From assembly GCA_030390025.1 (NCBI GenBank), contig CM059432.1, forward strand, positions 27,034,001 through 27,098,000: 64,000 bases of DNA, given 5' to 3'. Every line of letters begins with the position of its first letter. The stretch's first letter is position 1. This stretch comes from Squalus acanthias. Taxonomy: Eukaryota. This document shows, piece by piece, positions 16,574-64,000 of this stretch. The translations under genes were made by a program, and so were the position numbers. A model generated the notes under the pieces. It saw only the letters and a program-made list of their open reading frames with translations, ran no database searches and was not told the DNA's origin.

Positions 16574-16747
16574 GGAGGGTAATTTTCACCATCACCGCCT
16601 AGGTGGTAAACTGGTGGAGTGGATCGCCAGCCCATTGTAGAACCTACCCAATATTGTGTTAATAAAAACTGAGTGGGTTCTTTAATGGGCAGGCAATTCA
16701 CTCTGCCAGTTTACTGCCCCCATGCAGTGAAGGTAAAAATCATGCTC
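16574..16747. mobile_element. Palindromic MITE (Harbinger-like)
   Basis: Arms pair imperfectly over the whole length (aattttcaccatcac-gtaaactgg-cccattgtagaaccta vs gggttctttaatggg-ccagtttac-gtgaaggtaaaaat); AAT on both flanks. Confidence 0.6.
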
Positions 16748-29927: not shown

Positions 29928-30252
29928 TTGCACAAGGGTATACACATGGGTGTCTGAAAACATTCTTTTGCTAAGTTTTTGTTCTTTATTTAGCTCACAT
30001 AAATGTTTTTTTACTACTTTCCCTTGTCTATTCTTTGGTGCTGTGGTGGTAAGTGGCCTAACTTGTTTGATGATGAATGTGAAGACATGAATTAATGGGG
30101 ACCAATGGGAGGGTAGGGGGGCAATGTTCAAGGGGTGGTTGGTTGGTTGCAGGATTGCTTTGTGCCAGTGGCATGGGGCGGGGGAGGTGGGTGGAGAGCG
30201 CGAAGCATTGCTGTTGTGGTTTCTGGTGACATCATGGGTTCACTGGTGCAAC

Positions 30253-31382
30253 CTAAGTGAACCTTGCATTAATAAGGGCATCCCGGGCAGCAGTGTGAGC
30301 AGCTGGGGGTGCATTGCCCTCATCACCACCCTCCTCCTCCTCCTCCTCTTCCTCTTCCTCCTCCAGCTTTTCGCCTCATTCCTCCTACAGGTCCAAGTCT
30401 CGCTGTTGCACAATGTTGTGCAGAGCACAGCAAACCACGATAATCTGGCTGGTGCGTACTCAAGGGTGCCTCTGGATCTGTCCAGGCACCTGAAGCGCAT
30501 CTTCGGTATGCCGATGGCCTGTTCAATTACACATCTGGTGATATGGCATTCATTATAGCTCTGTTGGGCTTCAGTGTTGAGGTTTCAGATGGGTGTCCTG
30601 AGCCACATTTACAGTGGGTATCCCTTGTCGCCTAGCAGCCACCCACTAAGTCTGCTTCCAGACCTGAAGAGATCAGGGAGCTTGGACTGCTGCAGGACAA
30701 AAGCATCATGACAGCTGCCCGGGAATCTTCCGCACACCTGCATAAACGTCTTTTTGTGGTTGCACACCAGCTGCACATTGATGGAGTGGAAGCCCTAGCG
30801 ATTGACGAGTACTCCTGGTTGTTCTGTGGGTGCCGTGTGTGCCGTCGATTGGCACCCTGCACCTGTGGGAAGCCAGCCAGAGCCGCAAAGGCGAGCGCCC
30901 ACTGGCATCATCAGTGGCAAAGTTGACATAATTGCCAGCCCTGGCAAACAACCCGTCAGTCACCTCTCTTGCATTTGTGGGCGGCCAACTGGGAGATCCG
31001 GCATATGCCTGTGGCAGAGCCCTGGAAAGATCCAGAGACAAAAATGTTGAGGGTGGTGGTGACTTTGACAGTCACTGGTAACGCGTGGCCACCAGGTCTA
31101 GCAGGCAGCAGGTCTTTTTCTAGGAGGCTGCAGATGTCTGCCACCACCTGGCGTGACATCCTGAGCCTCCTGAGACACTGGTGTTCAGACATGTCCAGGA
31201 AACTGAGTTTCTTTCTGTAGACCATTTTGTGACTAGTGCCTCCTGCAAAATGCATCTCTCTGCTGGTCACCTCTCTGCTGTGCAACTACAGGTCTGTGAG
31301 CAGCAGGCTCCTGTGGGTGCTGTTGCTGGTGATCTTGGTCCTCATCTGACATCCAATTTAAGGCAGCATAAATGGCACCCAT
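30253..31382 (-). pseudogene. Harbinger (HARBI1-like, DDE) transposase pseudogene
   Basis: [78 protein letters not shown]; multiple frameshifts and stops. Confidence 0.92.
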
Positions 31383-39295: not shown

Positions 39296-39337
39296 CTTGT
39301 CTCTGTCCTTCTACATCTGATAGCATCCTACAATATT

Positions 39338-39458
39338 GAGGTAGAAATTTGACTTGGCCAGTAGTGCAAAGAGGAACTGAATGTCAGGTGGGTGTATAAC
39401 AGCCAGCCGATGCGGTACCGCCCACTTTGTGCTACCGCCCAAGATGAATTTCTACCCC
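39338..39458. mobile_element. 121-bp Harbinger-type MITE
   Basis: TIR GAGGTAGAAATT vs GGGGTAGAAATT; TSD ATT both sides. Confidence 0.8.
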
Positions 39459-39554
39459 ATTGTCTCTTCATGATCTATTGCTGTGATCCTTCACTTGGGA
39501 TCCTTAGTTTGTAGCCTTCCTACATCTGAGTTAGATGTTGTGGACTCCATCATC

Positions 39555-44668: not shown

Positions 44669-45055
44669 CGAGGGAGCTAGAAAGGGATATTCAGTCTAAT
44701 GGTGTAAAGGAGCTGAATCACACACAAATCTAGGGATGTCGAGCATCAACTGTGCACATTCTAAACAATCAGTCATGCTGTTGAGCTCGGTAGCCCTTCC
44801 AAACCAGTTGCCTTGATTGTGTCATCATCACCCTATCATCAAAAATGTTAAGAGAAATCAAACAAATTGTAAAAAAATTGCGCCTTCGGCTATTAAGATC
44901 TGTGCTCTGGTATTTACTCCTAAATCCCTCTGACTTGTTACATCTCTGCCCACCTTCAGACGTCTTCTCAAAAGCCTTATCTATGGTTTCCTAACTCTTC
45001 TCTGAATGTCTGCTCCTCTTTTGTGAAGCATATTGGGACATTAAAGGCATTGAAT

Positions 45056-45170
45056 AGGGCAGAAAGTACAAGACCCTGCTGCCAGGAAAACGCTTACTAG
45101 ATGCGAACATGGAGCACAGAATCAGGGCTACAATGCTGCACCAGCAGCAGAGTATCGCAATTTCTGCCCT
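45056..45170. mobile_element. Short MITE
   Basis: AGGGCAGAAA...TTTCTGCCCT terminal inverted repeat, ctgctg/cagcag internal pairing. Confidence 0.55.
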
Positions 45171-45736
45171 AAGTCGTTAACGTTTTTTGCAATGAATTTT
45201 CAGAAGGGGTTTTTACTCCTGAAGTCGGCAGGTGAGCTCAAACTTGAATTGTTGATGATCAAAGCAGCTCATAAGTTGAAAAAGAAATAAACAACAGCAA
45301 ACGTTGCTGCAGCAGTCTGCTCGCTGACAGTAGAGACTGTTCTAAGGAGAAGCGTGCCAGGGGAAATCCCATGGGAATGATAATGATGTTTAATTTTTCC
45401 TTCTATCTTAATAATTCTACCCCATGGTAATTGTGGGAAATTAATTGTGAAATAAATAAAGTGTAAGAAACCATTTTGCTGACTCGAAGGTGGTTTCATT
45501 CTCAATATCTGAGCGTAAAAAGTAATGGGAAACAAGCATTGAGATCAAGATACATGAAGCTGGTTCATGCTATTTCACAGTATCGTCATTATCTACCTAT
45601 CTTGTTACATTCTTATGAAATGGTAATTATACACTCAAAAAGCCATAAGAGGCTTTCAGTGTGGCAAAGGCAGCCAGATAAGGTTATTAGCATGTCTTCT
45701 TACAAAAGGTATGTTGTTTTCCTTTTTTATTAAAAG

Positions 45737-45858
45737 GTGGTGTAAAGTGTCCAGTGTGCAGTTTTGTGTATGGTACCAAGTGGGAGCTGAACAGACACCT
45801 GAAAAACAAGCACGGACTGAAGATTGTGGGCAGCATAGAAGGGGAAGCCATAGAGCAG
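45737..45858 (+). CDS. ZFAT: ZFAT coding exon 6 in window, last C2H2 finger (G)GVKCPVCSFVYGTKWELNRHLKNKHGLKIVGSIEGEAIEQ
   Basis: aag acceptor after T-tract, gtactt donor; 122 nt, phase 1-0. Confidence 0.93.
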
Positions 45859-45869
45859 GTACTTATTTT

Positions 45870-46330
45870 CTCACCTCTACTTCTAAAGGTGCTAACCCTT
45901 GCTAGGATGCAGTTGTGGAGGACGCCAGCTGACCTCTGTACCTAGCCCATGGCCATTCTTCATATGTATTTTAATAACAAGTGTTGTTAGGCTCGTAACA
46001 GTAGTCATCAAAGATCAAAGTCAAATCCTCCTCACCTAATATCTACAAACGTATACGATCCAGTGGGGGTCACTGGATCGTGATTCGTAGAGGGCACCGC
46101 TAGCCAGTTGTAGCGCTCCTACTATTGACCTTGCTGAGATTAACTTTCCTACATTACAACAGTGACTACACTTCAAAAGTAATTCATTGGCTGTAAAGCG
46201 CTTTGGGATGTCCGTTATATAAATGCAAGTCTTTCTTTCTTTTAACTAACACAGCATTGATTGGGGATCAAACCTGGTATGTATAACTCAGTACCACACC
46301 GTGAATTAGATTTAGCAATTAAGCCATTAC
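45870..46330 (-). mobile_element. Old SINE-like repeat (second family), decayed
   Basis: Reverse-complement similarity to 57456-57820 and 41220-41380 (gtgaggacagg, catgaagaatggcc motifs); contains a Deu-SINE tail at 46146-46241. Confidence 0.55.
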
Positions 46331-47705
46331 GGGTGCTGTAGGTACTCCTTTAATGGGATCTATTGCAAGACACTCATGTTATCTATATTGGGTTTAGAAT
46401 TGCCAACTGTTTCGCAGTAAAGTTGCCACAGTTACACCATGTATTGCCAGTCATCTCGTATAAATTGCTTTGCACATCAAAGACATACACTGCACAGATA
46501 AGCAGTTTTTGTTTTCCATTCGGAGCATCTCAGTTTGACTCCTGTCTCATTTTTTATATTTTTCCTTTTATAAAAAGTGCTTTGTCTCTGACTTATCCAT
46601 TCGCTGTTAACTAAATCTGTTTAGCAGTTTATGACCCAAAACACAGTTTACTGCGGTATTTATGCTGTAACCTTTTGAAGTCTAGGGACATCACATGATG
46701 TAAGTGGACACTGACCAAGGTTTTCTGTTCAACCTCTGGGGTCCCTATAAATTACTTAGATATTAAATAGCTCACTGCTCTGTGGGAGCGAGGGTGTGTT
46801 CTAAATAGTCTGAGACACTGAAAGTGAGAAAAATATCTGAAGTAAAAACCTGGAAACATAGCACATATCTCTGAAGCCCAGTGGACCGCAGCTTCTAATT
46901 TTATTTCACTGAAATATAATCACCATTATAAATATTGATTTAATGATATCAAAATAATTGAATAATGCAAAGCTGGAGTAAACAATAGAATATAAGTCTT
47001 GTACGGTTTGTCTACACAATCCAAACGCAGGCCCTTACTGGTTTCCAAAGGGTTGGTGAACTCGACGGTAACTTTGGAAAAGTAAATGAGCAAATCGTTT
47101 TACGGCTAAACAATTTTATTTACATGATTGGCACATGTTCATACAACCTTTCTGAAGTAAAGAGTGTCTTTGAGTTCTAACATTGCTCACTCCGTTACAT
47201 TCCTTTGTTCAATCTCTGTACCAATCAGTCTGCATTGCAAGCCATCGTCTCTTGTGATCATGAGTTGCTTCTTAATCATCTGGTAAGTAGCAGAAACATG
47301 CACCTTGAAGGGTTGACGTTGCTTAACCTGTAATGGCACCCCTCTTTTTGCAATGGTGTCCAAAAGGTTTAACTTTACAAATCTTACAGTCTACACTACT
47401 ATTTATGTTCTGATCACCATACCACAAAAAAGATATGCTTGTATTAAAAAGTGTGCAGGATAGAAGAACAAGACTGATCCCAATCAGGGAATGAGCTATG
47501 AAAGATCACTTATATGCACTTGTACGGCATTAATCTGTTTGTTGTTTTAACGGAGGAGTTTATTTTAACGGGGTACATGCTCGCATTAAAATAGCAGACG
47601 GGATTATTATACCAACAATAACACCTTTCATTTACATAGCACTTTTAACATAGTAAAACGTTGGAAACAAAATTGGCTAAGGGATAGAAAACAGAGTTGT
47701 GGTGA

Positions 47706-50700
47706 ATCACAGAATGGTTACAGCACGGGAGAAGGCCTGTTGAGTCTGTACAGGCTCTCTGCAACAGCACTTCAGCTAGTCCCACTACCCCACCCTTTCC
47801 CTGTAGCCCTGCAAATGTATTTATTTCAGATAATTATCCTACTCCCTTTTGAAAGCCGTGATTGAATCTGCCTCCACCACCCTTTCAGGCAGTACATTCC
47901 AGATCCTAATCACTCGCTGCGTAAAAAAGTTTTTCCTCATGTCACCTTTGGTTCTTTTGCCAATCACCTTAAATCTGTGTTCTCTAGTTCTTGACCCTTC
48001 TGCCAATGGGAACAGTTTCCCTCTATCTACTCTGTCCAGACCCCTCATGATTTTGAACACCTCTATCAAATCTCCTCTCAATCTTCTCTGCTCCAAGGAG
48101 AACAAACCCAGCTTCTCCAGACTATCAACTTAACTGAAGTCCCTCATTCCTGGAATCATTCTCTTAAATCTTTTCTGCACCCTCTCTAAGGCCTTCACAT
48201 CCTTCCTAAAGTGTGGTGCCCAGAATTGGACACAGTACTCCAGTTGGGGCCGAACCAGTGTTTTATACAGGTTCATCATAATTTCCACACTTTTGTGCTT
48301 TATACCTCTATTTATGAAGCCCAGGATCCTGTAAGCCTTTTTAACTGCTTTCTCAACCTGCCCTGCCACCTTCAACGATTTGTGCACATATACCCCCAGG
48401 TCTCTCTGTTCGTGCACACCCTTCAGGATTGTACCATTTAGTTTATATGTTCTCTCCTCATTCTTTCTACCAAAATGTATCACTTCACACTTTGCTGCGT
48501 TAAATTTCATCTGCCACGTGTCCGCCCATTTCACCAGCCTATGTCTTCCTGAAGTCTATCACTATCCTCCTCACTGTTCACTCTACTTCCAAGTTTTGTG
48601 TCATCTGCAAATTTTGAAATTGTGCCCTGTACTCCCACGTCCAAGTCATTAATATATATCAAGGAAAGCCGTGGTCCTAGAACCGACCCCTATGGAGCAC
48701 CACTGTATACCTTCCTCCAGTCCAAAAAACAACCGTTCACCACTACTCTGTGTTTCCTGTCACTGAGCCAATTTCATATCCATGCTGCCACTTTCATTAC
48801 GTGGCACTTTGTCGAACGCCTTTTGGAAATCCATGTACACTACATCAACTGCATTGCCCTCATCAACCCTCCTCATCAAAGAACTCAATCAAGTTAGTTA
48901 AACACGATTTGCCGTGCTGGCTTTCCTTAATTAATCCACACTTGTCCCTGATTACTGTTTCTAAAAGCTTCCCCACTACCGAGGTCAAACTGACTTGCCT
49001 GTAGGTTTATCTTTACACTCTTTTTTGAACAATGGTGTAACATTTGCAATTCTCCAGTCTTCTGGCACCACCCCCGTATCTAAGGAGGATTGGAATATTA
49101 TGGTCAGTACCTCCACGATTTCCTCCCTCAATTCCCTCAGCATCCTAGGATACATCCCATCTGGTCCTGGTGATTTATCTACTTTAAGTACAGCCAGCCT
49201 TTCTACTACCTCCTCTTTATCAATTTTTATCCTATCAAGTATCTCCACTACCTCCTCCTTTACTATGTCTATGGAGCATCCTCTTCCTTGGTGAAGACAG
49301 ATGCAAAGTACTCATTTAGTACCTCAACCATACCCTCTGCCTCCATGCATAGGTCTCCTTTTTGGTCCCTAATCGGCCACACCCCTCCTCTTACTACCTT
49401 TTTCCTATTTATATGCCTATAGAAGACTTTTGGATTACCTTTTATGTTGGCTGCCATTCTATTCTCATACCCTCTCTTTGCTCCCCTTATTTTCTTTTTC
49501 ACTTCTCCTCTGACCTTTCTATATATAGCCTGATTCTCAGATGTATTTGCAACCTGACATCTGTCATATGCGCTCTTTTTCTGCTTCATCATATTCTCTA
49601 TCTCTTTCGTCATCCAGGGATCCCTGACTTTAGTTGCCCTGCCTTTCCCCCTTGTGGGAATGTGCCTCAACTATACCTGAACTATTTCCTCTTTAAAGGC
49701 AGCCCATTGTTCCATTACAGTTTTGTCTGCCAATCTTTGATTCCAGTTTACCCGGGCCAGATCCGTTCTCATCCCACTGAAATTGGCCTCTCCCCCCCCC
49801 CCCCCCCCCCCCGCAGTTAAACATTTTTACTCTAGATTGCTCCCTGTCCGTTTCCATAGCTAATCTAAACCTTATGATACTATGATCACTGTTCCCTAAA
49901 TGTTCACCTACTGACACTTGCTCCACGTGACCTACCTCATTCCCCAGAACCAGATCCAGCAATGCCTCCTGCCTCGTCGGACCAGAAACGTACTGATCAA
50001 GAAAGTTCTCCTGAACACACTTCAGAAATTCTTCCCCGTCTCTGCCCTTTACACTATTATGATCCCAGTCTATATTAGGATAGTTGAAGTCCTCCATTAT
50101 TACTACTCTATAGTTCTTGCACCTCTCTGTAATTTCTCTGCAAATTTGTTCCTCCATATCTTTCCCACTATTTGGTGGTCTATAGAATACACCTAGTAGT
50201 GTAATGGCACCTCTATTATTTCTTAACTCTAGCCATATAGATTCTGTCCTTGACCCCTCCAGGACATCCTCCCTCTCCAGCACTGTAACATTCTCCTTAA
50301 CCAATACTGCCACACCACCTCTTTCCTTCCCTATCTTTCCTGAAGACTTTATAACCAGGAATATTTAATACCCAATCCTGCCCTTTTTTGAGTCAGGTTT
50401 CAGTTATTGCCACAACATCATATTTCCATGTGGCTATCTGTGCCTGTCGCTCACTTACCTTGTTTACTACACTTTGTGTGTTCACATACATACACTGTAA
50501 ACCCATCTTAGACCATCCTTTATTCTGTCTTAGTTTGAGCCCACCTAATACCTTACTATTTCTTACTTTAGTGCTCTCTGCCTCTCCCAATCCTTTAAGC
50601 ACTTTATTTCCCCTTTCTAATGTTACATCCTGGTGCCCATCCCCTTGCCAAAATAATTGAAACCCTCCCCAACAGCACTAGCAAATCTCCCTGATATTGT

Positions 50701-51172
50701 ACAAGCCCCACCTCCCCCAGAACTGGTCCCAATGCCCCAGGAATCTAAAGCCCTTCCTCCTGCACCATCTCTCCAGCCACGCATTCATCTGCGCTATCCT
50801 CCTATTTCTATACTAGCGCGTGGCACCGGGAGTAATCCGAAGATTGCTACCTTTTGAGATCCTGCTTTTTAATCTCTTTCCTAGCTCTCTGAAATCTGCC
50901 TGCAGGACCTCATCCCTCTTTCTACCTATGTCATTGGTACCGATATGGACCACGACCTCTGGCTGTTCACCCTCCCCCCCCCTCAATGTTCTGCAGCCGC
51001 TCGGTGACATCCTTGACCCTGGAATCATGCCTGCGGTCGCAGAAACGCCTGTCTGCTCCCCTAACTATCGAATTCCCTACCACTATTGCTTTCCCACTCT
51101 TCTTCCTCCCCCCCACTGCACAGCTGAGCCACCCATGGTGCCGCAGACTTGGCTCTGGCTATAGTCCCCAGA
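47706..51172 (-). mobile_element. Long CR1 copy (ORF1 esterase part, endonuclease, RT, tail) inserted antisense into another CR1
   Basis: ORFs 47839..48105, 48130..48534, 48985..49248, 49269..49670, 49693..50313, 50393..50602, 50813..51028 (HIGTND). Confidence 0.94.
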
Positions 51173-51572
51173 GAAATGGCTGCTTTTTGGAGTGGAGGGA
51201 GGTATACAGTGGTGTTCCCAGGGTTCCGTACCAGGACCACTGCTGTTTTTTGACATACATTAATGACTTGGACTTGGGGGTACAGGGCACAGTTTCAAAA
51301 TTTGCAGATGACACAAAACTTGGAAGTGTAGTAAACAGTGAGAAAGATAATAATAGACTTCAAGAGGACATAGGCGGAAGGTGTGGACACATGGCAGATG
51401 AAATTCAACGCAGAAAAGTGTAGAAGAGTGATGAGAGACAATACAAGCTGAAAGGTACAATTTTAAAGGAGGTGCAAGAAGGGAGAGATGTGGGGGTATT
51501 TGTGCACAAGTCTTTGTAGGTGGCAGGACAGGTTAACAAAGCATATGAGATCCTGGGCTTTATAAATAGAGG

Positions 51573-51798
51573 TCATGATGCGGAGATGCCGGTGTTGGAC
51601 TGGGGTGGACAAAATTGAGAGGTCGCACAACACCAGGTTAAAGTCCAACAGTTTTATTTGAAATCACAAGCTTTCGGAGCTTACTACTCCTTCGTCGGGT
51701 GAAGTGACTTCACCCGACGAAGGAGTAGTAAGCTCCGAAAGCTTGTGATTTCAAATAAAACTGTTGGACTATAACCTGGTGTTGTGCGACCTCTCAAT
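51573..51798. mobile_element. Penelope-type inverted terminal-repeat insertion (hairpin element)
   Basis: 14-bp TSD TTTATAAATAGAGG (51559-51572, 51799-51812); 95-bp arms 51611-51705 and 51707-51801 with one mismatch. Confidence 0.85.
51710..51748 (+). ncRNA. Minimal type-I hammerhead ribozyme motif (core variant CCGACGA); mirror copy on - strand at 51664-51702
   Basis: Stem I UCAC/GUGA; core C-C-G-A-C-G-A; stem II GGAG/CUCC; GAAA; palindromic AAGCUU stem III as in PLE dimeric hammerheads. Confidence 0.7.
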
Positions 51799-52371
51799 TT
51801 TATAAATAGAGGCATAGAGTACAAAAGCCAGGAAGTTATGCTAAACCTATATAAAACACTAGATCAGCCCCAGCTGAAGTACTGTGTCCAATTCTGGGCA
51901 TCACACTTTAGTAAGGACTTTGGAGAGGGTACAGAAGAGATTTACTAGAATGGTTCCAGGGATGAGGGATTACAGTTACGTGTATAGACTGGAGAAGTTG
52001 GGGTTGTTTCCTTTAGAGTTAAGAGGCGATTTGATAGAAATGTTTAAAAATGAAGGGTTTAGATAGAGTAAATAAAGAGAAACTGTTTCCAATGGCTGAA
52101 GGGTTGATAACTGGAGGGGACTGATTTAAGGTGATTGGCAAAAGAACCAGAGGGAACATGAGGGAAAAACCTTTTTACACAATGAGTGATTAGGATTTGG
52201 AATGCACTGCCTGATAGGGTGGGGTGGTGGAAATAGTTTCATTAGTAGTTTTCAAAAGGGAATTGAATTAATACTTGAAGGAGAAAAAATTGCAGGGATA
52301 TGGGGTAAGAGCCAGGGAGTGGGACTAACTTGATTGCTCTTTGAACAGCTGGTGCAGACTTGATGGGCCGA

Positions 52372-52660
52372 AATTTGACACTGAGCCACATAAGGTGATA
52401 TTAGGACAGATGAAAAGAGGTAGGTTTTAAGGAGTGACTTAAAGGAGGAGAGAGAGGGGGGTTTAGGGAGGGAATTCCAGAGCTTAAGGCCAAGGAAGCT
52501 GAAGGCACAGCCACCAGTGGTGGAGCGATTAATATTGGAAATGTGCAAGAGGCCATGGATGAGATGAGCTTGAAGAGGGCATGATGGGAGATAGGAGAGA
52601 AACTAGAGAAAGATGCGAGTTCAGGGCTTGGGCAGGTGGGAACATAGTAAGTAATATCAG
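52372..52660 (-). mobile_element. L2 3' fragment
   Basis: GGCAFSFLGLKLWNSLP-FKSLLKTYLF in ORF 52252..52548. Confidence 0.75.
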
Positions 52661-53009
52661 AAACAGTCATTTCTAGCTTAGAGCAGCTTAAGCTTTATAG
52701 TCTGCGCAGAATGCAGGCAAGTTTCATTAAAAGAAAAGTGAGGAGTGCAGTCTAGGTGGTTCGTGCCCATGCTGTGTATCAAGCAAGAAAGTTTTGGGGA
52801 AATAAAATTGAACATTGACCACTCCTGTCAGTCCAACAATACTGCTCATCAATGAGAAGAAATGGTAATTACTGCGTAATTTTGAATGAGAGGAAGTGGT
52901 TGAGGATATAAGATAGAAACAGGAAAATTACACCAACAAATGGGAATTTTTCTATAATCATTTTGCCATAAAATAATACTATTTTGGGGGGGGTGGGGTG
53001 CATATCACA

Positions 53010-53670
53010 AAACCTTGAAGGTGGCAGGGCAAATTGATAAGGCAGTTTAGAAAACATATGGGGCTTTGTAAATAGGGGCATTGAATACAAAAGCAAGTCA
53101 TGCTAAACCTTCACAAATCACTGGTTAGGCCTCAGCTGCAGTACTGTGTACAATTATGGGCACCACACTTTAGGAAGGATGTCGAGGCCCTAGAGAGGGT
53201 ACAAAAGGAGGTTTGCTGGGATGATAACCAGGGATGAGAGAGTTCCGTTAAGTGGCGAGATTGGAGAAGCTGGGATTGTTCTCCTTATAGCTGAGAAGGT
53301 TAACGGGAGACCTAATAGAGGTATTCAAAATTATGAAGGGTTTTGATAGAGCAAGTAGGGAAAAACTATTTCCTCTGGCAAGTGGGTCAGTAGCCAGAAG
53401 TCATAGATTTAAAATAATTGGCAATAGGACTAGAGGGGAAATAAGGAGAAAGTTCTTCACACAAAGGGTTGTTAAGATCTGGAAAGCGCTATCTGAAAGT
53501 GTGGTGAAATCAGATTCCATAGTAACTTTCAAAAGGCAATTGGGCATGTACTTGAATGTGGACTAATTTGCAGGGTTATGGGACTAAATTCGACAGCTCT
53601 TTCATAGAGCTGGCACAAGCATAACGGGTCGAATGGCCTCCTTCTGTGCTATAAGATTCTGTGATTCTAT
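53010..53670 (+). mobile_element. CR1 3' fragment
   Basis: ORF 53333..53566; gattctgtgattcta tail. Confidence 0.9.
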
Positions 53671-53997
53671 TTTCTTAGGGGATAATGGGTGAATTAGAAT
53701 CATTCCAAAAGGGTTAGAGAAAGATGTGTGAGGACATCTATGAGTAACATAAATCAATGTGCCCTGGGCACAATGTGCATTCTAGTGAAAGTCTGGAAAG
53801 TGTAGGTGAGATTGGTTAATTGATGGCTTTCTCTTGGATATGTTTGTGTCCTTGCCAATGCTGAACACTGAACATTCAAAGAAAACTGAATTTGATAGCT
53901 CTCCCAAGTGTGGAGTTTATGGATAATTATCAACAAATAAATTAAGACCAAGGAAACTGTTGGAGCAATATGTATATGTCTGTGTTTATGAAACTTA

Positions 53998-54648
53998 GGG
54001 CGAAAAATTGGGTTGATTTGCGCCTATACGAGGAGCAAATCCCCTAGCGCCCAGGCGCGGCACCGCTAATGCCTCCCGTGAAATTCAGCGGTGGCGGTAG
54101 CGCCCCGCGGTGCTGCACCACCGGCGATGACATCATCGCTGTGCGCAGTACCCCCGTTCGCGCCCCGGCCGCAAACTTGGGTTGCGCCCACTGACCTATC
54201 GCCGGACAATATGTCCGATAGGATCAGGGTGGCGTTTTTGCAGCCGCGGCGGGGCTATTAAAGGGCAGGTGTCAGGCGGCCATTTCTTTTGGGCCGACTG
54301 CCAGCATCTGCCCCCTTCCCCTTTTTTTCTCTGGTTGCTCGCTCAGCCCGGCACTCCTCTTGAGTGCCGGGCTGTTTTCACGGCACCCCGCTCCCCGGTG
54401 GTCTTGCAGGGCCCCGGTGCGCGCAGCACTAGGCCCCTCCCCTTGAATCGTGGGAAGGAGGCCTGCAATGATGCGGCACTGCGTGGCACTGTTGCACGTA
54501 GCGCTGCGATATTCAGTTGTAGTGTCACAAGAAGGAGGTGGAATGCTTCCAGAATTTCAGGCGGAGGGACGCTAATTTTTTGGGGTGCTAAAATTAGCGC
54601 CCAAGCGACGTTAGCGCCCCAAAAGGGGCGACACGGAATTTTTCCCCC
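53998..54648. mobile_element. GC-rich PIF/Harbinger (Tourist-like) MITE
   Basis: TIR GGGCGAAAAATT vs GGGGGAAAAATT; canonical TTA TSD on both sides. Confidence 0.92.
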
Positions 54649-54762
54649 TTAATGTTAATAAAATGTAAACCCAAGTTGATCTAAGAAGAGACCTGAAAGA
54701 AAGTTAAGGGGTAAGGTGAAAATTGACCCAGAGTGCTTTCACTCGGGTTCAAAAGGAGGAAA

Positions 54763-55352
54763 TGTTAGAATATTGACCATTACTAGTTGACCATCTTCCC
54801 ATCAGACCCTGCCTTGTATACAGCAAGTTAAAATGTCCTTGTGACGTACTAGCTGAGCTTACAAATAACAGGTTTTGTTTTGGAACAATCTGTAAAGAAC
54901 CAGACACTTTCTGATGAAAGAAGTGGACAATAACAAGCTTGTAAGACAGAGATGGAGGTCGAGGAGATGAGGAGTTGGTAGCGTGGCGTCAGCTTGGTGG
55001 GATAATAAGGACAGAGATGCGTAGGTGCAGCCAAAGTAGCCCAATAGTATAAAGGTAGAGCCTGTTCCCTCCAAATGTTTGAGCTCTCAGGACTGTTGGA
55101 AGTCCATTTACCTGAATGGTAGCCCACGAAGGGGCAAATCGATCATCTTGAGCTTCGTGGATGAAACAGGTTGTATTAATTGCTTTTCATTTAATGTAAT
55201 ACTATAGAACAGTTGTATAAGAACAATTCTGTTATTAGTCAATGTATATTAAATCTTGTTGTTTAAAACCACTCGGGCCTGAATCACAGAGGTTATTGTT
55301 ACAGGATTAACAACTCTTTGTTGCGACCGTAACCACGGGAAATCCACTAACA
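54763..55352 (+). mobile_element. Possible solo LTR
   Basis: TGTTAG...CTAACA termini; CCAAT 55041, TATAAA 55048, ATTAAA 55248; no clean TSD. Confidence 0.4.
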
Positions 55353-55868
55353 AGAGGTAAATGTTTGGAATAATATGCCGAGCAAATTAATACTGGTGAA
55401 AACATTGAGGTTATTCAAATCCTGACACAAGAACAGTAATACTTGCATTAATGAGATGTAATGCTGTTTGCTTTAATTGATACTATACCACACAATTGGG
55501 AGCAGTGGATCTCCCATTCTACATTATAAACGATGGCAAGCTGTGAGTGAGTAATAGAGGTTTTCTCTCAACAGCAACCTAACGTGCTTCTCACAAGCGA
55601 GAAGACATCTCAACGCACTATAAGGACGCTGAGCAGGAGGGAAAAAAAGAAAACTGAAGACGGTCAGGTTGGGTGGGAGTGGGGGCGCAAAGACATGGTC
55701 GAAGAGAAGGATTTTAAGGAGGGAAATCAATGGAAAGATAGGGAATTAAGCAGGAAGTTACAGAGAACAAAAGCAGTTTTGGAGTGGGGGGACAGGGTAG
55801 TAGTCTAGTATAAGAGGAGCGGAGACATGAGGCTGGAGGAAATCTATTACTGTTGATGACATAGGTGA

Positions 55869-55922
55869 GAAGTCGCACAACACCAGGTTATAGTCCAACA
55901 GTTTACCGGCATCTCCGCATCA
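55869..55922. mobile_element. 54-bp collapsed remnant of the Penelope-type hairpin element
   Basis: 15-bp TSD TGATGACATAGGTGA; insert is the arm start plus the accggcatctccgcatca terminus of the 51573 element. Confidence 0.85.
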
Positions 55923-56736
55923 TGATGACATAGGTGACCAAGGAGTGGCATTGAGGGGATCTCACTTATGAGCTGGAGTGCTCTTCATTTTTATAATGCG
56001 GCTGATGGGATAGAGGACACGGAAAAGTACACAATAAGAACCGAACAAATCAACAGCATGGGAGTTGGTTAAAATGTTATTCTTTAACCTCTGGGACCTG
56101 GATTCATATCTGCTACGTTTGGTGTGATGGGCCTCCTCTCAACCCAGTCCCTAGTGGATGCAAGAACACAGTACGAAATTGCCTGTAACTTTGCACAAGT
56201 TGGCAGTTTGATATGAAGGATACCACATGGATGACTGGAATTGTGAATGGAAGCATCTGATTGAGGCAATAAAGGATTCTTTTCTGAGGCATATTGTTGT
56301 AACAGAAGTGGAGGAGCCTTGTGACTGTGCAGTACCTGATTTGATGCCGATAACAAGAACTTGCCGAGTGCCTTTCGTGGATTCAGTAGACGATGTTTGG
56401 AAGTGGAAGTAGGTAGTGAAGCAGATGTAGGGTTTGAAGCTCAGCCTAGGAGAAAAGCCAGGAAGAGGGATAGCACTGTTTAATATGGTGAAAAGTTTCA
56501 GCCAGTAGCCAAACAGAGCGGCTTCAGTCTGAAAGGATTATTGTTGAAGAAATGAGGGAATTTTACCTGGCGGCTATCCTTAGAGTGCTTGATATTAACA
56601 CTGAGTAGGAAATTATGCAAAAAAGTTACATTCACTCACCCTAATAATCACAAGAAATTCATACTTTTTTAATTGGAAAAAAGCAATATATTTTGAAGGT
56701 AGTGATTATGGATATATTTGTGTTTGTGTGCAGCAG

Positions 56737-56863
56737 GTTCTTGAAGCTCCCCCAGAGCAGACTCAAACACAGTACTTTCACATAGCAGAGAGTGAAGAGG
56801 ACATCCAGGGCACTCAGGCAGCTGTGGCAGCTCTTCAGGACCTGCGGTACAACACAGAGAATG
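56737..56863 (+). CDS. ZFAT: ZFAT coding exon 7 in window, VLEAPPEQTQTQYFHIAESEEDIQGTQAAVAALQDLRYNTEN (alternative start 56734 adds Q)
   Basis: CAGCAG acceptor, gtgagt donor; phase 0-1; QGTQAAVAALQDLRY motif of ZFAT C-terminus. Confidence 0.93.
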
Positions 56864-57820: not shown

Positions 57821-57874
57821 AAATTAGCAAAAACAAACATTACTGATTTTATATCTGTTGTTTCTTATTCCTAG

Positions 57875-58002
57875 GGGATAGAATGGATTCGACAGCTGTA
57901 AACATTCTTCAGCAGATCATCGGTTTAGCTCCAGAGCACCATGACGGTGCCGTTGCTTCTGTGGTTACCATGGCACCCGGCACATTAACAGTTGTGGAAC
58001 AA
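57875..58002 (+). CDS. ZFAT: ZFAT coding exon 8 in window (probably penultimate), (G)DRMDSTAVNILQQIIGLAPEHHDGAVASVVTMAPGTLTVVEQ
   Basis: cctag acceptor, gtaaga donor; 128 nt, phase 1-0; TAVNILQQII and ASVVxMAPGT motifs of ZFAT. Confidence 0.94.
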
Positions 58003-58483
58003 GTAAGATTTCCATTCTCTTTTATCTGGAATTAACTCATGCAGCACTATAATGTTAATTGTAAAGTAAAGCTCACTCCACTCTGCCTCAATCTCAGAAG
58101 AGTACTGCCTGCTGCATGAATGTGGCATTTCTATTTCACACATTAATGGTCCGAATGGTTCTTCAGTTAGTGCTGTATTAATGGCAGCTTTATGCTGTGG
58201 ACATACACCCACTGGGAACTGAGATGCAACTGCCCAGGTCATTAGCTAGCAGAGAGAGGAGACTGTCTTTTCATCAATCTGGGCTGGGTTGGAGCCCATG
58301 TTCCAGAGGTGAATGTTTTATCTCACTGTGCCACCCAGTCATAGCTTCCAAAGTTATGGTGCCAATGCACTATGTGCCTTCTTAGCTGTAATCTCCCTCT
58401 CCAACACACACATACGTGTGCAATGCTCTGTCACAAGGAGGTTATAAAGTGGTGGCGAGATGTTTCCCGATATCTAGGTGTGA

Positions 58484-59600
58484 GCCTTAGTGGTTGCCTC
58501 CGAGTCAGTAGGTCATGGGTTCAAGTACCACTTCAGAGACTTAGGGGGAAAAATTCGGTTGATTTACGCGCAAAGCAACTAGCGCCCGGGCGCGGCGCCG
58601 CTAATGCTTCCCGCGAAATTCAGCGGGAGGTTAGCAACGGCGGTAACCGTTAGAGCCCAGCGTCGCGGTGCCTCCAGCGATGATGTCATCGCCGTGCACT
58701 GCGCCCCTGCCGCGATCTTCGGTAGCGCCCCCTGACTTACCGCCGGACGCTATGTCCGACAGGGTCAGGGGGGCGTTCGTGTGGCTGGGAAGGCACAAAT
58801 TAAAGAGGAGGTGTTGGGTGGCCTTGGTTACTGGCCGCCTGCCAGCACCTGCCCCCATTGCTGTCCTCGACCTCCTGTGAAGCCCCCCCCCCCCCCCCCC
58901 ACAGCGTGGTGCTGGCTGCGCTCTGTGACCCCGGCACTCCGACCCTTGGTGGCCCAGCTGGGCCCCGGGTTGCGCTGCGCTAGGGTCCTCCCCTTTAATA
59001 AGGGGAGGAAGGCCTGCAGTACCGCAGCGCGAAGTGCCGCGATATTTACTCTCAGCACCCTAAGAGGGAGGCAGGGCGCTTCCAGTAGCACCCCGCCTCC
59101 CTCTTGGGGCGCTACCAGTGAATTTCGGGCGCTGGGGTGCTAACTTTTTTGGGGTGCTAAAAGTAGCGCCTTGGCGAACTTAGCGCCCCAAAGGGGGCGC
59201 GACCCAATTTTGCCCCCTTGAGCGCATAACTTAGGCTGCCACTCCAGTGCATTGTTGAGGGAGTACTGCACTGTCAGAGGTGCTGCCTTTTGGATGAGAC
59301 ATTAAACTGAAGTGCTATCTGCCTTCTCACCAAAATTCCTGGTACAATTCTAAGAAGAGCAGTGAAGTTCTCCTTGTGGCCTGGCCAGCATTTATCCCTC
59401 ATCCAACACCACCAAAACAGATTATCTGGTCATTTTCCTCATTGCTGTTTGTGTGACCTTGCTGTGTGCAAATTGGTTGCCATGCCTGCTTGCATTACAA
59501 TCCTGACTACTCTTTAAAAGTACTTCATTTGGCTGTGGGGAGTTTTTGGACATTTTGAGGTTGTGAAAGGCACTATGTAAATGCAAGTTCTTTCTTTCTT
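58484..59600 (+). mobile_element. Deu-domain tRNA SINE split by a MITE
   Basis: B box gggttcaagtacc at 58517; body resumes at 59218 (ttgagcgcataac) through tail. Confidence 0.85.
58544..59217. mobile_element. GC-rich PIF/Harbinger MITE (same family as 53998)
   Basis: TIR GGGGGAAAAATT vs GGGGGCAAAATT; TSD TTA/TTG; collinear with 53998-54648. Confidence 0.9.
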
Positions 59601-60299
59601 CAATAGTGTGAATCTTAATGTTTTACAATTAGTCACTTCTATTTTGAAAATAGCACTGGTGGTCTCCCAGGAATAGGGGTTGGAGACTTCCATATGGTGC
59701 AGGGTTTCTTACATTGGACTGAATCTGTAGCCACCTGGCTCACTTGTGCTGCCAGTTCCTCCTTGACACTTGAATTCTCTATATGGATGGTGAGTTGGTC
59801 CCAAGTCCCAACCTGCTTGCAGAGTCTCAATGCGCATCTCAAGACAGAAGCAGTTTTACACCAAGCCCAGTGCAGGCAAGCACTATTGAGTGTAAAAGAT
59901 ACTTCTCTGTTGATACAGCTTTGCAATACTTGCCACCAGTGAACATCCTTAGACATCGGGTCTGAAGCATTGCAGATGGTAATTCTGGGCTCGCCCCATT
60001 AGGGACTCTCCTACACCTGTTTACGCTTTGGTTGTAACGTACAAATAAAATGATCATAGAATGGTACAGGACAGAAACAAGCTATTCAGTCCATCACTGT
60101 GCTATTTTTTCTCCACCTGAGCCACATAATTTAATCCTACTCTCGTACTTGCTGCCCATACCCTTTAATAATCCTCTTTTAAATAAACCAATGGAGGCTA
60201 CGGGTCTCCAGCGTTAAAATGGGGAATTGGCGGGAATGGAGCAGGAAACGGAACAGCTCCATTTTAACTACTCTCATCCCCCTATCCGACAATCAGGTT

Positions 60300-61775
60300 C
60301 CACTATGGAAATCGTGGATGCATTGCTTGTCGTCTTCCAAAATTCTATAGATTATAGAACAGTTCCGGCAGATTGGAGGGTGACAAATGTAACCCCACTA
60401 TTTAAAAAAGGAGAGAGAGAGAAAACTGGGAACTACAGACCGGCTAGCCTAACATCAGTAGTAGGGAAAATGCTAGAGTCTATTATAAAGGATGTGATAA
60501 CAGGGCACGTAGAAAATATCAACGGGATTAGACAAAGTCAGCATGGATTTATGAAAGGGAAATCGTGTTTGACAAACCTACTGGAGTTTTTTGAGGATGT
60601 AACTGGTAGAATAGATAAGGGAGAACCAGTGGATGTGGTGTATTTGGATTTTCAGATGGCCTTTGATAAAGTCCCACATAAGAGGTTGGTGTGCAAAATT
60701 AAAGCACATGGGATGGATTGAAAATTGGTTAACAGACAGGAAACAGAGAGTAGGAATAAATGGGTCTTTTTCGGGGTGGCAGGCAGTGACTAGTGGGGTA
60801 CCGCAGGGATCAGTGCTTGGGCCCCAGCTATTCACAATATATATCAATGATTTGGATGAGGGAACCAAATGTAATATTTCCAAGTTTGCTGACGACACAA
60901 AACTAGGTGGGGTTGTGAGGAGGATGCAAAGAGGCTTCAAGGCGATTTAGACAAGTTGAGTGAGTGGGCAAATACATGGCAGATGCAGTATAACGTGGAT
61001 AAATGTGAAGTTATCCACTTCAATAGGAAAAACAGAAAGGTAGAGTATTATTTAAATGGTGATAGATTGGGAAATGCTGAATTACAAAAGGACCTGGGTG
61101 TCCTTGTACACCAGTCACTGAAAGCAAACATGCAGGTGCAGCAAGCAGTTTGGAAGGCAAATGGTATGTTGGCCTTCATTGCAAGAGGATTTGAGTACAG
61201 GAACAAGGATGTCTTACTACAGTTATACAGGGCCTTGGTGAGACCACACCTGGAGTACTGTGTGCAGTTTTGGTCTGTTTACCTAAGAAAGGATATACTT
61301 GCCATAGAGGGAGTGCAGCGAAGGTTCACCAGACTGATTCCTGGGATGGCAGGACTGTCATATGAGGAGAGATTGGGTCGACTAGGCCTGTATTCACTAG
61401 AGTTTAGAAGAATGAGAGGGGTTCCCATTGAAACGTATAAAACGCAGGGAGGATGTTTCCCCTGGCTGGGGGGTCTAGAACGAGGCATCACCGTCTCAGG
61501 ATACGGGGTAGGACATTTAGGACTGAGGTGAGGAGAAATTTCTTCACTCAGAGGGTGGTGAACCTGTGGAATTCTCTACCACAGAAGGCTGTGGAGGCCA
61601 AGTCACTGAATATATTTAAGAAGGAGATAGATTTCTAGACACAAAAGGCATCAAGAGGTATGGGGAGAGAGCAGGAATATGGTATTGAGAGAGGATCAGC
61701 CATGATCATATTGAATAGCGGAGCAGGCTCGAAGGGCCGAATGGCCTACTCCTGCTTCTATTTTTCTATGTTTCT
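60300..61775 (+). mobile_element. CR1 RT and 3' end
   Basis: ORFs 60227..60721, 60633..60950, 60956..61531 (NYRPASLTS, QHGF, FADDTKL). Confidence 0.94.
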
Positions 61776-62189
61776 AAGAGCAGAGTTTACTTACCTTGTC
61801 CCTTTAAGGATTGCTGGTTAGGCCGCTATAGACCCTGAAAAGCTAGTATTTTATCAATTTCACCGGGTCCTAAAACAGGCGTTAGGCCACTGATTAGTAT
61901 ATGCATAAACGCTGTTTAAAACAGACTCCCAGGGTGCCTAAGTAGCGCCTGATACAATTTTTCATTAACTTCAAGGGTGAATTGGTAGTTTTTGCACCTG
62001 TTTTACGCCAGGAAAATGGGCACAATGCATACCAATTTCTTTCCCATTGTCTATTAATTAATAACAATATCCTTCCTTCCTTCTCTATCTCTCCTGAAAG
62101 ATCCTGTTTGGCATATTACTTAGCTGTTCAATTTTAAGGAGATGGAGTATCTATTACAGTTCTTTTGCTCAGCTGTAGGTACTCCCGGG

Positions 62190-63290
62190 TCAATGCAAGA
62201 CGTGCTGTTATCTTGGGACAATTTAGAAATTGCACTTCCGATTTCCGAGTCCAAATCGTTAATGTTAATTGTGAACAACAGTGGTCCCAGCACTGATTCC
62301 TGTGGAACACCACTTCACACCTTTTGCCAGTCTGAGTAGCTACCCTTAATCTGTGTTTTCTGTTTTGAAGCCAGCTTGCTATCCATTCTGCTACCTGTCC
62401 CCTGACTCCACATCCTTAGACCTTAGGCATGAGTCTACTATGCAGTACTTTATTGAAGGCCTTTAGAAAATCCAAATATATTACATCTACTGCATTACCC
62501 TTGTCTATTCTTTGTTACTTCTTCAAAGAATTCAATAACTTTGGTCAAGTTCGACCTTCCCTTTGAAATCCGTGCTGACTATTCTTTATTATATTTTTGG
62601 TTTCTAGATATTTTTCTATTACATCTTTGAGTAAAGCTTCCATTATCTTTCATACCACCGATGTTAAGTTAAATGGTCTATAGTTCCTTGGACTTGTTCT
62701 ATTTACCTTTTTAAATATAGGAATAACATTAGCTGTCCTTTGGTCTTTTGGCCCTGTTCCATTTTCTAATGAATTGTTATATGTAATAGTACCTCTGCTA
62801 TTCTCTTCCCTAACTTTTTTTTAATATGCACAGATGCAATCATTCTGGACCAGGGATTTTATCCTCTCCAAGTTTGATTGGTTTATTAGTTATATCTCCC
62901 CTTTCTATCTTGAATGTCGTCATATCTTTTTTGATTGCTCCTTCTAATGTCATGCCCACCTTGTTAGTCTCTCTGATAAATACTGAGGCAAAGTAACTTC
63001 AACATTTCTGCCATTTCACTCTCATTACCTGTGAATTCAGCTTGTGCATCCCTTAGTGGTCCTATCCAAAGTTCCCGTTAAGCTGTCTGGAGGTCCCGCG
63101 CAGGTCGCTCGCCGGCTTTTAAATTGGAATAAACCCGCCTGAGCAATAACTTGAATGGGCCGTTAAAGGGGTCGCGCACCCAAAAGCAATTAGTGGGAAC
63201 ACTGTTCCTATCCTTATCCTGATTTTTCTTTTATTTGTGTCTGTAGAATACTTTACTATTTCTTTTTAAGTTCCTTGATGATTTAATTTA
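62190..63290 (-). mobile_element. CR1 internal fragment, same subfamily as 18925-25910 host
   Basis: Collinear with 21540-21740 plus 22877-24080. Confidence 0.88.
63067..63204. mobile_element. hAT-type MITE
   Basis: CAAAGTTCCC...GGGAACACTG; 8-bp TSD GTCCTATC/TTCCTATC. Confidence 0.82.
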
Positions 63291-64000
63291 ATGGACGCGA
63301 CTGCTGACAACAAAAAGCCGTTGCGCATGCGCAGTGGTTTTTTTTGGTTGTTGCCGGACTTCCCACAGATTGATCAGAGAGGATGGGGTAAAGAGATCAC
63401 TGCTGCCAAACTGAAGAAAATAAAAATGAGAAGTTTGATCGCTGCTGCCAAACTGAGAAGAAAATAAAAATTAAAAGTTGAAATAATATTTATGCGCTGC
63501 CGAACTGAGCCGAGAGAGAAAGGAGGGGAGGGGAGGGGGTGGGGAAAAGTGATCGCTGCTGCCGATCTGAGGCAAGAGAGAAAGTTAACATTTATGCATT
63601 GCTGAAAATAAAAATTAAAAGCTTAATTGGTTAACGTTAACATTTATGTGCAGAATGCTTCCGGTTCGTTGGCAGCAGTCACTCTCATTTAATATGCTTA
63701 ATCCCATATCCTATAGTAATCAGAGCTAAACTCTGTAGGGAGGATGTATTTAAATCATCCACGTTAAAGTTTTGAATTGTCTTTAAAAACATACTGTATA
63801 GCAGCATTAAAAACCCCTGCACAACACTGTTCACAATCCTGCCTTAAAGGCAAGAATTACATAAATTAAATTGTAATTACAGAAAGAGTGCATTAGCAAA
63901 AGTCTTTAGCTCTTACCTATTCAGAAATGCACAATATTCATGATTAAAGCTGAGCCAGTAAATCCTTAAGGTGATAAACAAACTTGTCATTGACTAGGCT

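Follow-up and report, generated by a model that had tools for sequence, protein, structure and literature searches.

Penelope-like elements (for background, see the accessible part of PMC6155905) insert with an inverted 5'-truncated copy beside the element and with a tail of 30–40 bp that is frequently confined to one end (Craig et al. 2021, PMC8557442, accessible text); a tail of that length is also reported by Frangieh et al. (2024, PMC11167929). How the inverted and tailed ends form is stated to be undefined in the accessible text of the former study (PMC8557442). For head-to-head palindromes accompanied by duplications of 8–10 bp, self-priming has been proposed, perhaps with antisense RNA or DNA as template (Arkhipova et al. 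2013, PMC3846280, accessible text). The Poseidon protein of the anole was found in vitro to cut and extend both strands of AT-rich DNA, from two start sites, one on either side of the tail, that share no homology with the cut DNA; uncleaved RNA serves as the template, and ribozyme cleavage is not needed (PMC11167929). Minimal hammerhead ribozymes of metazoan Penelope-like elements are described as inactive when single and weak as dimers, and they occur as opposite-strand pairs 100–700 bp apart (Cervera and De la Pena 2014, PMC4209133, accessible text). Hammerheads with the U4C change are considerably less active in vitro, although a viroid tolerates it (PMC3088659, accessible text). Finally, non-autonomous derivatives of Penelope termini exist and, as non-LTR retrozymes, have been reported in the one cartilaginous fish sampled (bioRxiv 10.64898/2026.07.22.740005, accessible part).

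The locus considered here lies in a 64-kb stretch of the Squalus acanthias genome, hereafter the window, and consists of a 226-bp insertion that is most likely the dead, truncated end of a Penelope-like retroelement, its two arms probably copied from one template molecule in a single insertion event. Two arms of 95 nt each (51611–51705 and 51707–51801) face one another across a 1-nt spacer, G51706, with a single mismatch, A51641 opposite A51771. The left arm, taken together with the spacer (51611–51706, − strand), reads as a 5'-truncated terminal repeat continuous with a 38-bp one-sided extension (51573–51610, − strand), which we interpret as the Penelope tail. The right arm (51707–51801, + strand) is the inverted copy without a tail and ends at the family's internal boundary. 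Two AT-rich 14-bp direct repeats, at 51559–51572 and 51799–51812 (+ strand), are identical at all 14 positions and bound the insertion within a host LINE; the right arm runs 3 nt into the second of them, sharing its first three bases. The insert carries no ORF. The near-perfect palindrome, the extension, the duplication and the coding-free character that a preliminary description had reported were thus all recovered from the window sequence. Elsewhere in the 64 kb, the longest inverted repeat with at most one mismatch and a spacer of at most 20 nt measures 16 bp, and under the same settings shuffled sequence gave 11–12 bp in each of three shuffles. The palindrome is predicted to fold into a 94-bp duplex of −182 kcal/mol (z-score −27.8), a stability that none of 200 shuffles equalled.

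The host is the decayed 3' region of a LINE reverse transcriptase (51190–52372, + strand), whose frame is interrupted by the insertion, with LGFINR to the left of it and FINRGIEYK to the right. That the site is an AT-rich LINE target with a duplication held up; the accompanying name CR1, given by its motifs, is a presumptive label. After computational removal of the insert, blastn against the window gave 10 matches, two of them to the locus itself, and five of the eight others, all to further LINE copies, cross the site uninterrupted. In all three DNA-type sequencing runs, contigs depart from the reference after 51572 and continue with the letters of the window's right flank (68, 124 and 157 contigs). 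Because other LINE copies cross the site without an insert and contigs continue into the right flank, the 14-mer is a true target-site duplication. Pfam searches of five LINE-like frames found RVT_1 in two, one of them in the related copy at 60218–60718, and no family in the other three, which include the host's own frame. Other copies in the window are 66–77% identical to the host LINE. Set against this figure, the single difference between the arms over 109 paired positions (0.5% per base, 95% interval 0.01–2.6%) bears out the suggestion that the insertion is, by its sequence, young relative to the host LINE, although arm-to-arm conversion could hide its age. LINE reverse-transcriptase remnants densely fill the introns of ZFAT, the gene in which the locus lies (1435–2205, 60218–60718 and many others).

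The closest relatives of this arrangement are the insertions in the accessible texts of Craig et al. (2021, PMC8557442) and Arkhipova et al. (2013, PMC3846280), with which the shark copy shares the head-to-head inverted 5'-truncated copy, the one-sided tail of 30–40 bp, the target-site duplication, the AT-rich target and the location inside another retroelement. It differs from them in that truncation on either side has left only the terminal repeat and no ORF, that the arms meet without offset and that its length is only 226 bp; its 14-bp duplication is also longer than the 8–10 bp of the rotifer examples (PMC3846280, accessible text). Compared by description only, the Anolis carolinensis Poseidon element PAc resembles the shark copy in its AT-rich target and in a hammerhead that lies upstream of two ends, one on each side of the tail (PMC11167929). 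The distances from predicted ribozyme cut to the two ends, 57 and 95 nt in the shark copy, are on a scale similar to those of PAc (PMC11167929). Whereas the PAc ORF starts inside the ribozyme, the sole ATG on the sense strand of the shark element lies at the tail's outer end (51574–51576, − strand; PMC11167929 for PAc), where it may represent the start codon of the missing ORF.

Assignment to the Penelope-like class, in particular to its endonuclease-bearing (EN+) members, is most likely correct and is based on four structural features: an inverted 5'-truncated terminal copy placed head to head, a tail on one end, an AT-rich target-site duplication and membership in a dispersed family. The tail itself is 38 bp long, stands at the same end in a second copy described below and is reflected in both tailed and tail-less ends in relatives. 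The Penelope-type origin proposed earlier is therefore supported by anatomy and literature, in an insert that has no linked ORF. The layout as such is not new: opposite-strand pairs of minimal hammerheads 100–700 bp apart and the inverted copy with tail were both already in print (PMC4209133 and PMC8557442, accessible texts), and the palindrome adds a further truncated insertion to a class already known. A literature search by title and start of abstract, with subscription papers and repeat databases outside its scope, returned no description of the shark family. Pattern scans of public metagenome contigs, prokaryote genomes and viral contigs, collections not expected to contain shark DNA, gave no matches. 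Two other classes were considered and rejected. For a MITE of DNA-transposon type, the inverted repeats should be flush with the duplication at both ends; here a 38-bp unpaired tail is left over, and the second copy lacks matching ends. A non-LTR retrozyme would require two or more hammerhead-bearing units in head-to-tail order, and only one head-to-head pair is present.

Relatives of the element were sought in contigs from four of 24 listed sequencing runs, compared with positions 51400–51735: X5 and X15 from organism A (X15 being only guessed to be RNA), X6 from organism B and X13 from organism E. The best run of the relatives reached a 0.33 share of query words, no RNA data set was listed as a carrier, and all statements on the family refer to short contigs of these relatives. 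The family is present in three of the four runs (X5, X6 and X15); X13 contigs gave no cover on the element, which we do not take as absence. In X5, summed depth rises to 5.7 million on the element as against 0.32 million on the LINE flank, a figure that is not a copy number; X15 has one opposite-strand joint (51610/51680), in a single contig. The tail end, before 51575, meets unrelated AT-rich flanks in 67 contigs of X5 (agreement 0.39) and 19 of X15 (0.42). Such flanks in numerous contigs from organisms A and B, together with two insertions within 64 kb, mark a dispersed repeat. Among the 15 of 23 joints listed, tail-less ends at 51613–51617 are joined to flank-like sequence ending at 51562–51571 in seven contigs of X5 and three of X15. 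These other copies appear attached by their tail-less end to an AT-rich LINE motif 1–10 nt from the 51572 junction, which suggests that the family possibly hits the same motif repeatedly as a target site; the matched sides are short, at 21–30 nt.

The relatives also polarize the few variants. At 51641, T makes up 97–98% of summed depth in X5, X6 and X15 (40 of 51 variant rows listed, none beyond 51641), and because T dominates there, the A51641 of the left arm is the derived base of the mismatch. G at 51621, which both arms share, is the minority base, A accounting for 71% in X5, 72% in X15 and 97% in X6. In X5 and X6 the loose-end consensus extends across 51706 and beyond it as non-palindromic letters; the spacer G51706 is accordingly templated rather than foreign. 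Alignments of the relatives break in loop II of the hammerhead motif. Among the 24 of 608 loose-end consensus rows listed, four span the ribozyme core (20, 23, 24 and 15 contigs, median length 11–16 nt, agreement 0.53–0.75, with only part of the contigs reaching position 4), and all four have U4, so that in those relatives C4 is not what the family normally carries. In these rows position 7 is C, A or G, and stem II still pairs while loop II varies.

A second, shorter insertion of the same family lies about 4 kb from the palindrome, at 55854–55937 (+ strand), between 15-bp direct repeats (55854–55868 and 55923–55937). It joins an inverted piece, equivalent to about 51616–51654, to the last 21 nt of the tail and lacks the hammerhead. 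Its tail end is identical to that of the palindrome, its internal end is about 5 nt off, and it too overlaps its own duplication by 3 nt. The two pieces do not overlap one another, and the copy has a different centre and no long palindrome; at the position equivalent to 51621 it carries A. Common outer ends with another centre and no long palindrome fit mirror arms made anew at each insertion. It may equally have started out as a palindrome whose centre was lost afterwards; loss by exact deletion between 9-nt repeats was rejected, because the junction has 4–5 extra bases. A 16-mer scan of the window revealed no third copy, the seven further isolated matches being single or triple 16-mers that look like chance.

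Each arm encloses a motif resembling the minimal type I hammerhead, UCAC-CCGACGA-A-GGAG(uaguaag)CUCC-GAAA-GCUU-GUGA. The right-arm motif (51710–51748, + strand, sense to ZFAT) comprises a 4-bp stem I, the core CCGACGA, an extra A, stem II, GAAA and a palindromic AGCU, with C4 at 51715 and a predicted cut after 51744; the left-arm motif (51664–51702, − strand, antisense to ZFAT) has C4 at 51697. Stem I, a stem II with G10.1-C11.1, the extra base after A9, the GAAA, the palindromic remnant of stem III and a UH cleavage site are all present. The canonical core C3-U4-G5-A6-N7-G8-A9 is departed from at position 4, where each arm has C. Across the two strands of the 64 kb, a pattern scan returned these two sites only, one per arm, which agrees with the preliminary description of a motif on both strands. 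Rfam had no match over the 64 kb at the gathering threshold, and at E up to 10 over 291 bp it gave seven weak matches (five miRNA hairpins and two sRNAs), with no hammerhead model among them. A microRNA precursor was rejected as well, the best scores, 84 and 47 bits, falling short of cut-offs of 200 and 93 respectively, in keeping with generic hairpin scoring.

With the motifs in the accessible text of Cervera and De la Pena (2014, PMC4209133), those of the shark share the short stem I, the extra base between 9 and 10.1, G10.1-C11.1, the palindromic 15.2–16.2 and the want of a real stem III. They differ in having C at position 4 in both arms, in lying about 10 nt apart rather than 100–700 bp, and in a stem II of 4–5 bp as compared with the 7–8 bp given for Schistosoma (PMC4209133, accessible text). 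Sharks are not named in the results or discussion of that paper; its supplements, or those of the bioRxiv preprint (10.64898/2026.07.22.740005, accessible part), may list shark motifs. In the isolated arm stem I is weak, with a pair probability of 0.13–0.15 (z −1.4), and stem II has 0.9; in the context of the palindrome the values of both stems fall below 1e-18, and to force the hammerhead fold would cost 69 kcal/mol. These predictions support the earlier proposal that the long hairpin masks the ribozyme. The window holds no same-strand hammerhead partner by pattern scan, and any transcript of the locus would carry one sense motif together with its exact antisense, so that the dimer route is closed in cis. 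The ribozyme is predicted to be silent here, lacking a same-strand partner for a dimer fold, bearing U4C and buried in a 94-bp duplex. On general grounds, the duplex is a plausible substrate for Dicer or ADAR editing. Just 3' of the hammerhead, at 51754–51759 (+ strand), lies an AATAAA that is mirrored on the left arm; it is sense to ZFAT in the right arm and is paired in the predicted hairpin.

C4 and the minority base G51621 are common to both arms, and the inner ends of the arms coincide within 1–2 nt. These common variants and coinciding ends argue that the arms derive from one molecule; they do not separate the two copying routes by which this could have happened. By the first, which we hold to have about an even chance, two nicks would have primed on one RNA. 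The element's GIY-YIG/RT protein would nick both strands of the AT-rich site, 14 nt apart; from one nick, reverse transcription would start at the tail end (51573), and from its counterpart some 38 nt upstream, at an internal site (51611–51614) primed through a 3-nt microhomology, much like the two in vitro start sites of the anole Poseidon. Both copies would stop at the same point, 3–4 nt upstream of the hammerhead, and be joined head to head, gap filling would yield the duplication, and one change, either later or during copying, would account for the arm mismatch. The microhomology at the internal start, which we infer from the two junctions only, contrasts with the non-homologous start sites of the anole study (PMC11167929).

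The second route leaves the identity of the insertion the same and, for this sub-step only, is a serious though less probable contender. Here, a cDNA primed at the tail would fold back near 51706 and copy itself, the hairpin being resolved at the tail boundary by an endonuclease or by annealing to the second nick. A centre without deletion or foreign bases and the presence of C4 and G51621 in both arms are what such copying would leave, and there is precedent in the self-priming proposed for palindromes of this kind (PMC3846280, accessible text) and in the endonuclease resolution proposed for the tail (PMC8557442, accessible text). However, fold-back copying needs a separate reason for stopping at the family's fixed internal boundary, whereas two-site priming gives that stop directly (PMC11167929); it needs an added deletion for the second copy, whose pieces do not overlap; and contigs of the relatives have tail-less ends also at the LINE position where the palindrome has its tail end. 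Homology in stem I as the fold-back primer was rejected, as it would give a large spacer.

The choice between these routes bears on the origin of C4, which had been assigned to the template. Relatives have U4 in the four listed core-spanning rows, and a first-strand error, which under fold-back could have been a single one, or arm-to-arm conversion would also leave C4 in each arm. C4 in both arms shows that the arms have one origin; its presence in the RNA template is one of three options, since a first-strand error copied by fold-back or a later conversion between the arms would also give it, and it need not have been there.

A bolder extension of two-nick priming, which we consider improbable, is that fold-back stumps record the copying itself: both nicks would prime on one molecule at two fixed starts, and an antisense double-stranded template edited by ADAR would yield A-to-G changes shared by the arms. 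Scored against the relatives, the two arm-shared changes (51697 and 51621) are both A-to-G on the antisense strand before G; two transitions are too few to count as statistical evidence, and in organism A the variant G51621 is common. If the idea were true and the bias held over thousands of copies, genomes would furnish evidence that Penelope elements replicate as the antisense-template model has it, and palindromes in introns could return edited templates with a dead ribozyme to the family. The single locus matters little; its value is as one of many natural records of how Penelope-like elements build inverted ends, and shark genomes with very many short young insertions would permit a cheap test by comparison of arms, centres and junctions across copies.

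Quite unlikely, in our estimation, is the reading closest to the hairpin unit first proposed, a non-autonomous hairpin of MITE or retrozyme type whose entire palindrome would be transcribed and inserted anew. It would suit the coding-free, duplication-bounded insert with its near-perfect arms, and non-autonomous derivatives of Penelope termini are on record (bioRxiv 10.64898/2026.07.22.740005, accessible part); retrozymes resemble the shark insert in being coding-free, carrying a type I hammerhead and deriving from a Penelope terminus. Mobilization as a unit is nevertheless not supported by the second insertion, which has common outer ends but another centre and no long palindrome. Past 51706 the X5 and X6 consensus continues as non-palindromic sequence, and just three of 8,100 X5 contigs fit two places, although short contigs may hide palindromes. 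Retrozymes, moreover, are head-to-tail repeats with at least two same-strand ribozymes, in contrast to the one head-to-head pair of the shark (bioRxiv 10.64898/2026.07.22.740005, accessible part), and the RNA of a palindromic unit would be almost fully double-stranded.

The locus lies in the ZFAT pre-mRNA, as had been suggested: eight exons on the + strand map to shark ZFAT protein, and both insertions fall within an intron of about 10.9 kb (45859–56733, + strand, boundaries approximate) between exons at about 45737–45858 and about 56734–56863. The exon 3' of the element is 82–100% identical to elasmobranch ZFAT over 44 aa, the best match being a sawshark cluster. It is very improbable that the hairpin is a host-adopted double-stranded RNA element which regulates ZFAT via ADAR editing, Dicer products or intronic polyadenylation at the AATAAA (51754). 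Its place in the intron and a predicted fold into a 94-bp duplex of −182 kcal/mol would suit such a role, but the insertion is young, belongs to a large repeat family and stands about 5 kb from either exon, and the Rfam matches to miRNA families, far below threshold, reflect the hairpin only. If ZFAT were affected at all, it would be through incidental double-stranded RNA, to the overall load of which long intronic palindromes may add. That the palindrome is an assembly fold-back artefact is hardly credible: inverted Penelope structures do trouble assemblies (PMC8557442, accessible text) and no contig of the relatives spans the locus, but beyond the 14-bp duplication the host LINE resumes in register, the two sides are not symmetric, the arms differ at one base and the second insertion has matching ends.

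Several other features of the window deserve mention. In 57874–64000, the last mapped ZFAT exon ends at about 58002 (residue 1135 of 1216), and the C-terminal remainder was not found in the window at identities of at least 70%. On the − strand, 30243–31285 holds the broken frames of a DDE transposase-like gene, which is presumably Harbinger-like; one of five frames tested matched Pfam DDE_Tnp_4 (E 5.7e-05), just under the curated cut-off. Older, imperfect inverted repeats, several of them GC-rich and 76–82% complementary where listed, occur at 16606–16714, 39337–39459, 45055–45171, 54000–54650 and 59040–59201, and are possibly remnants of MITE type.
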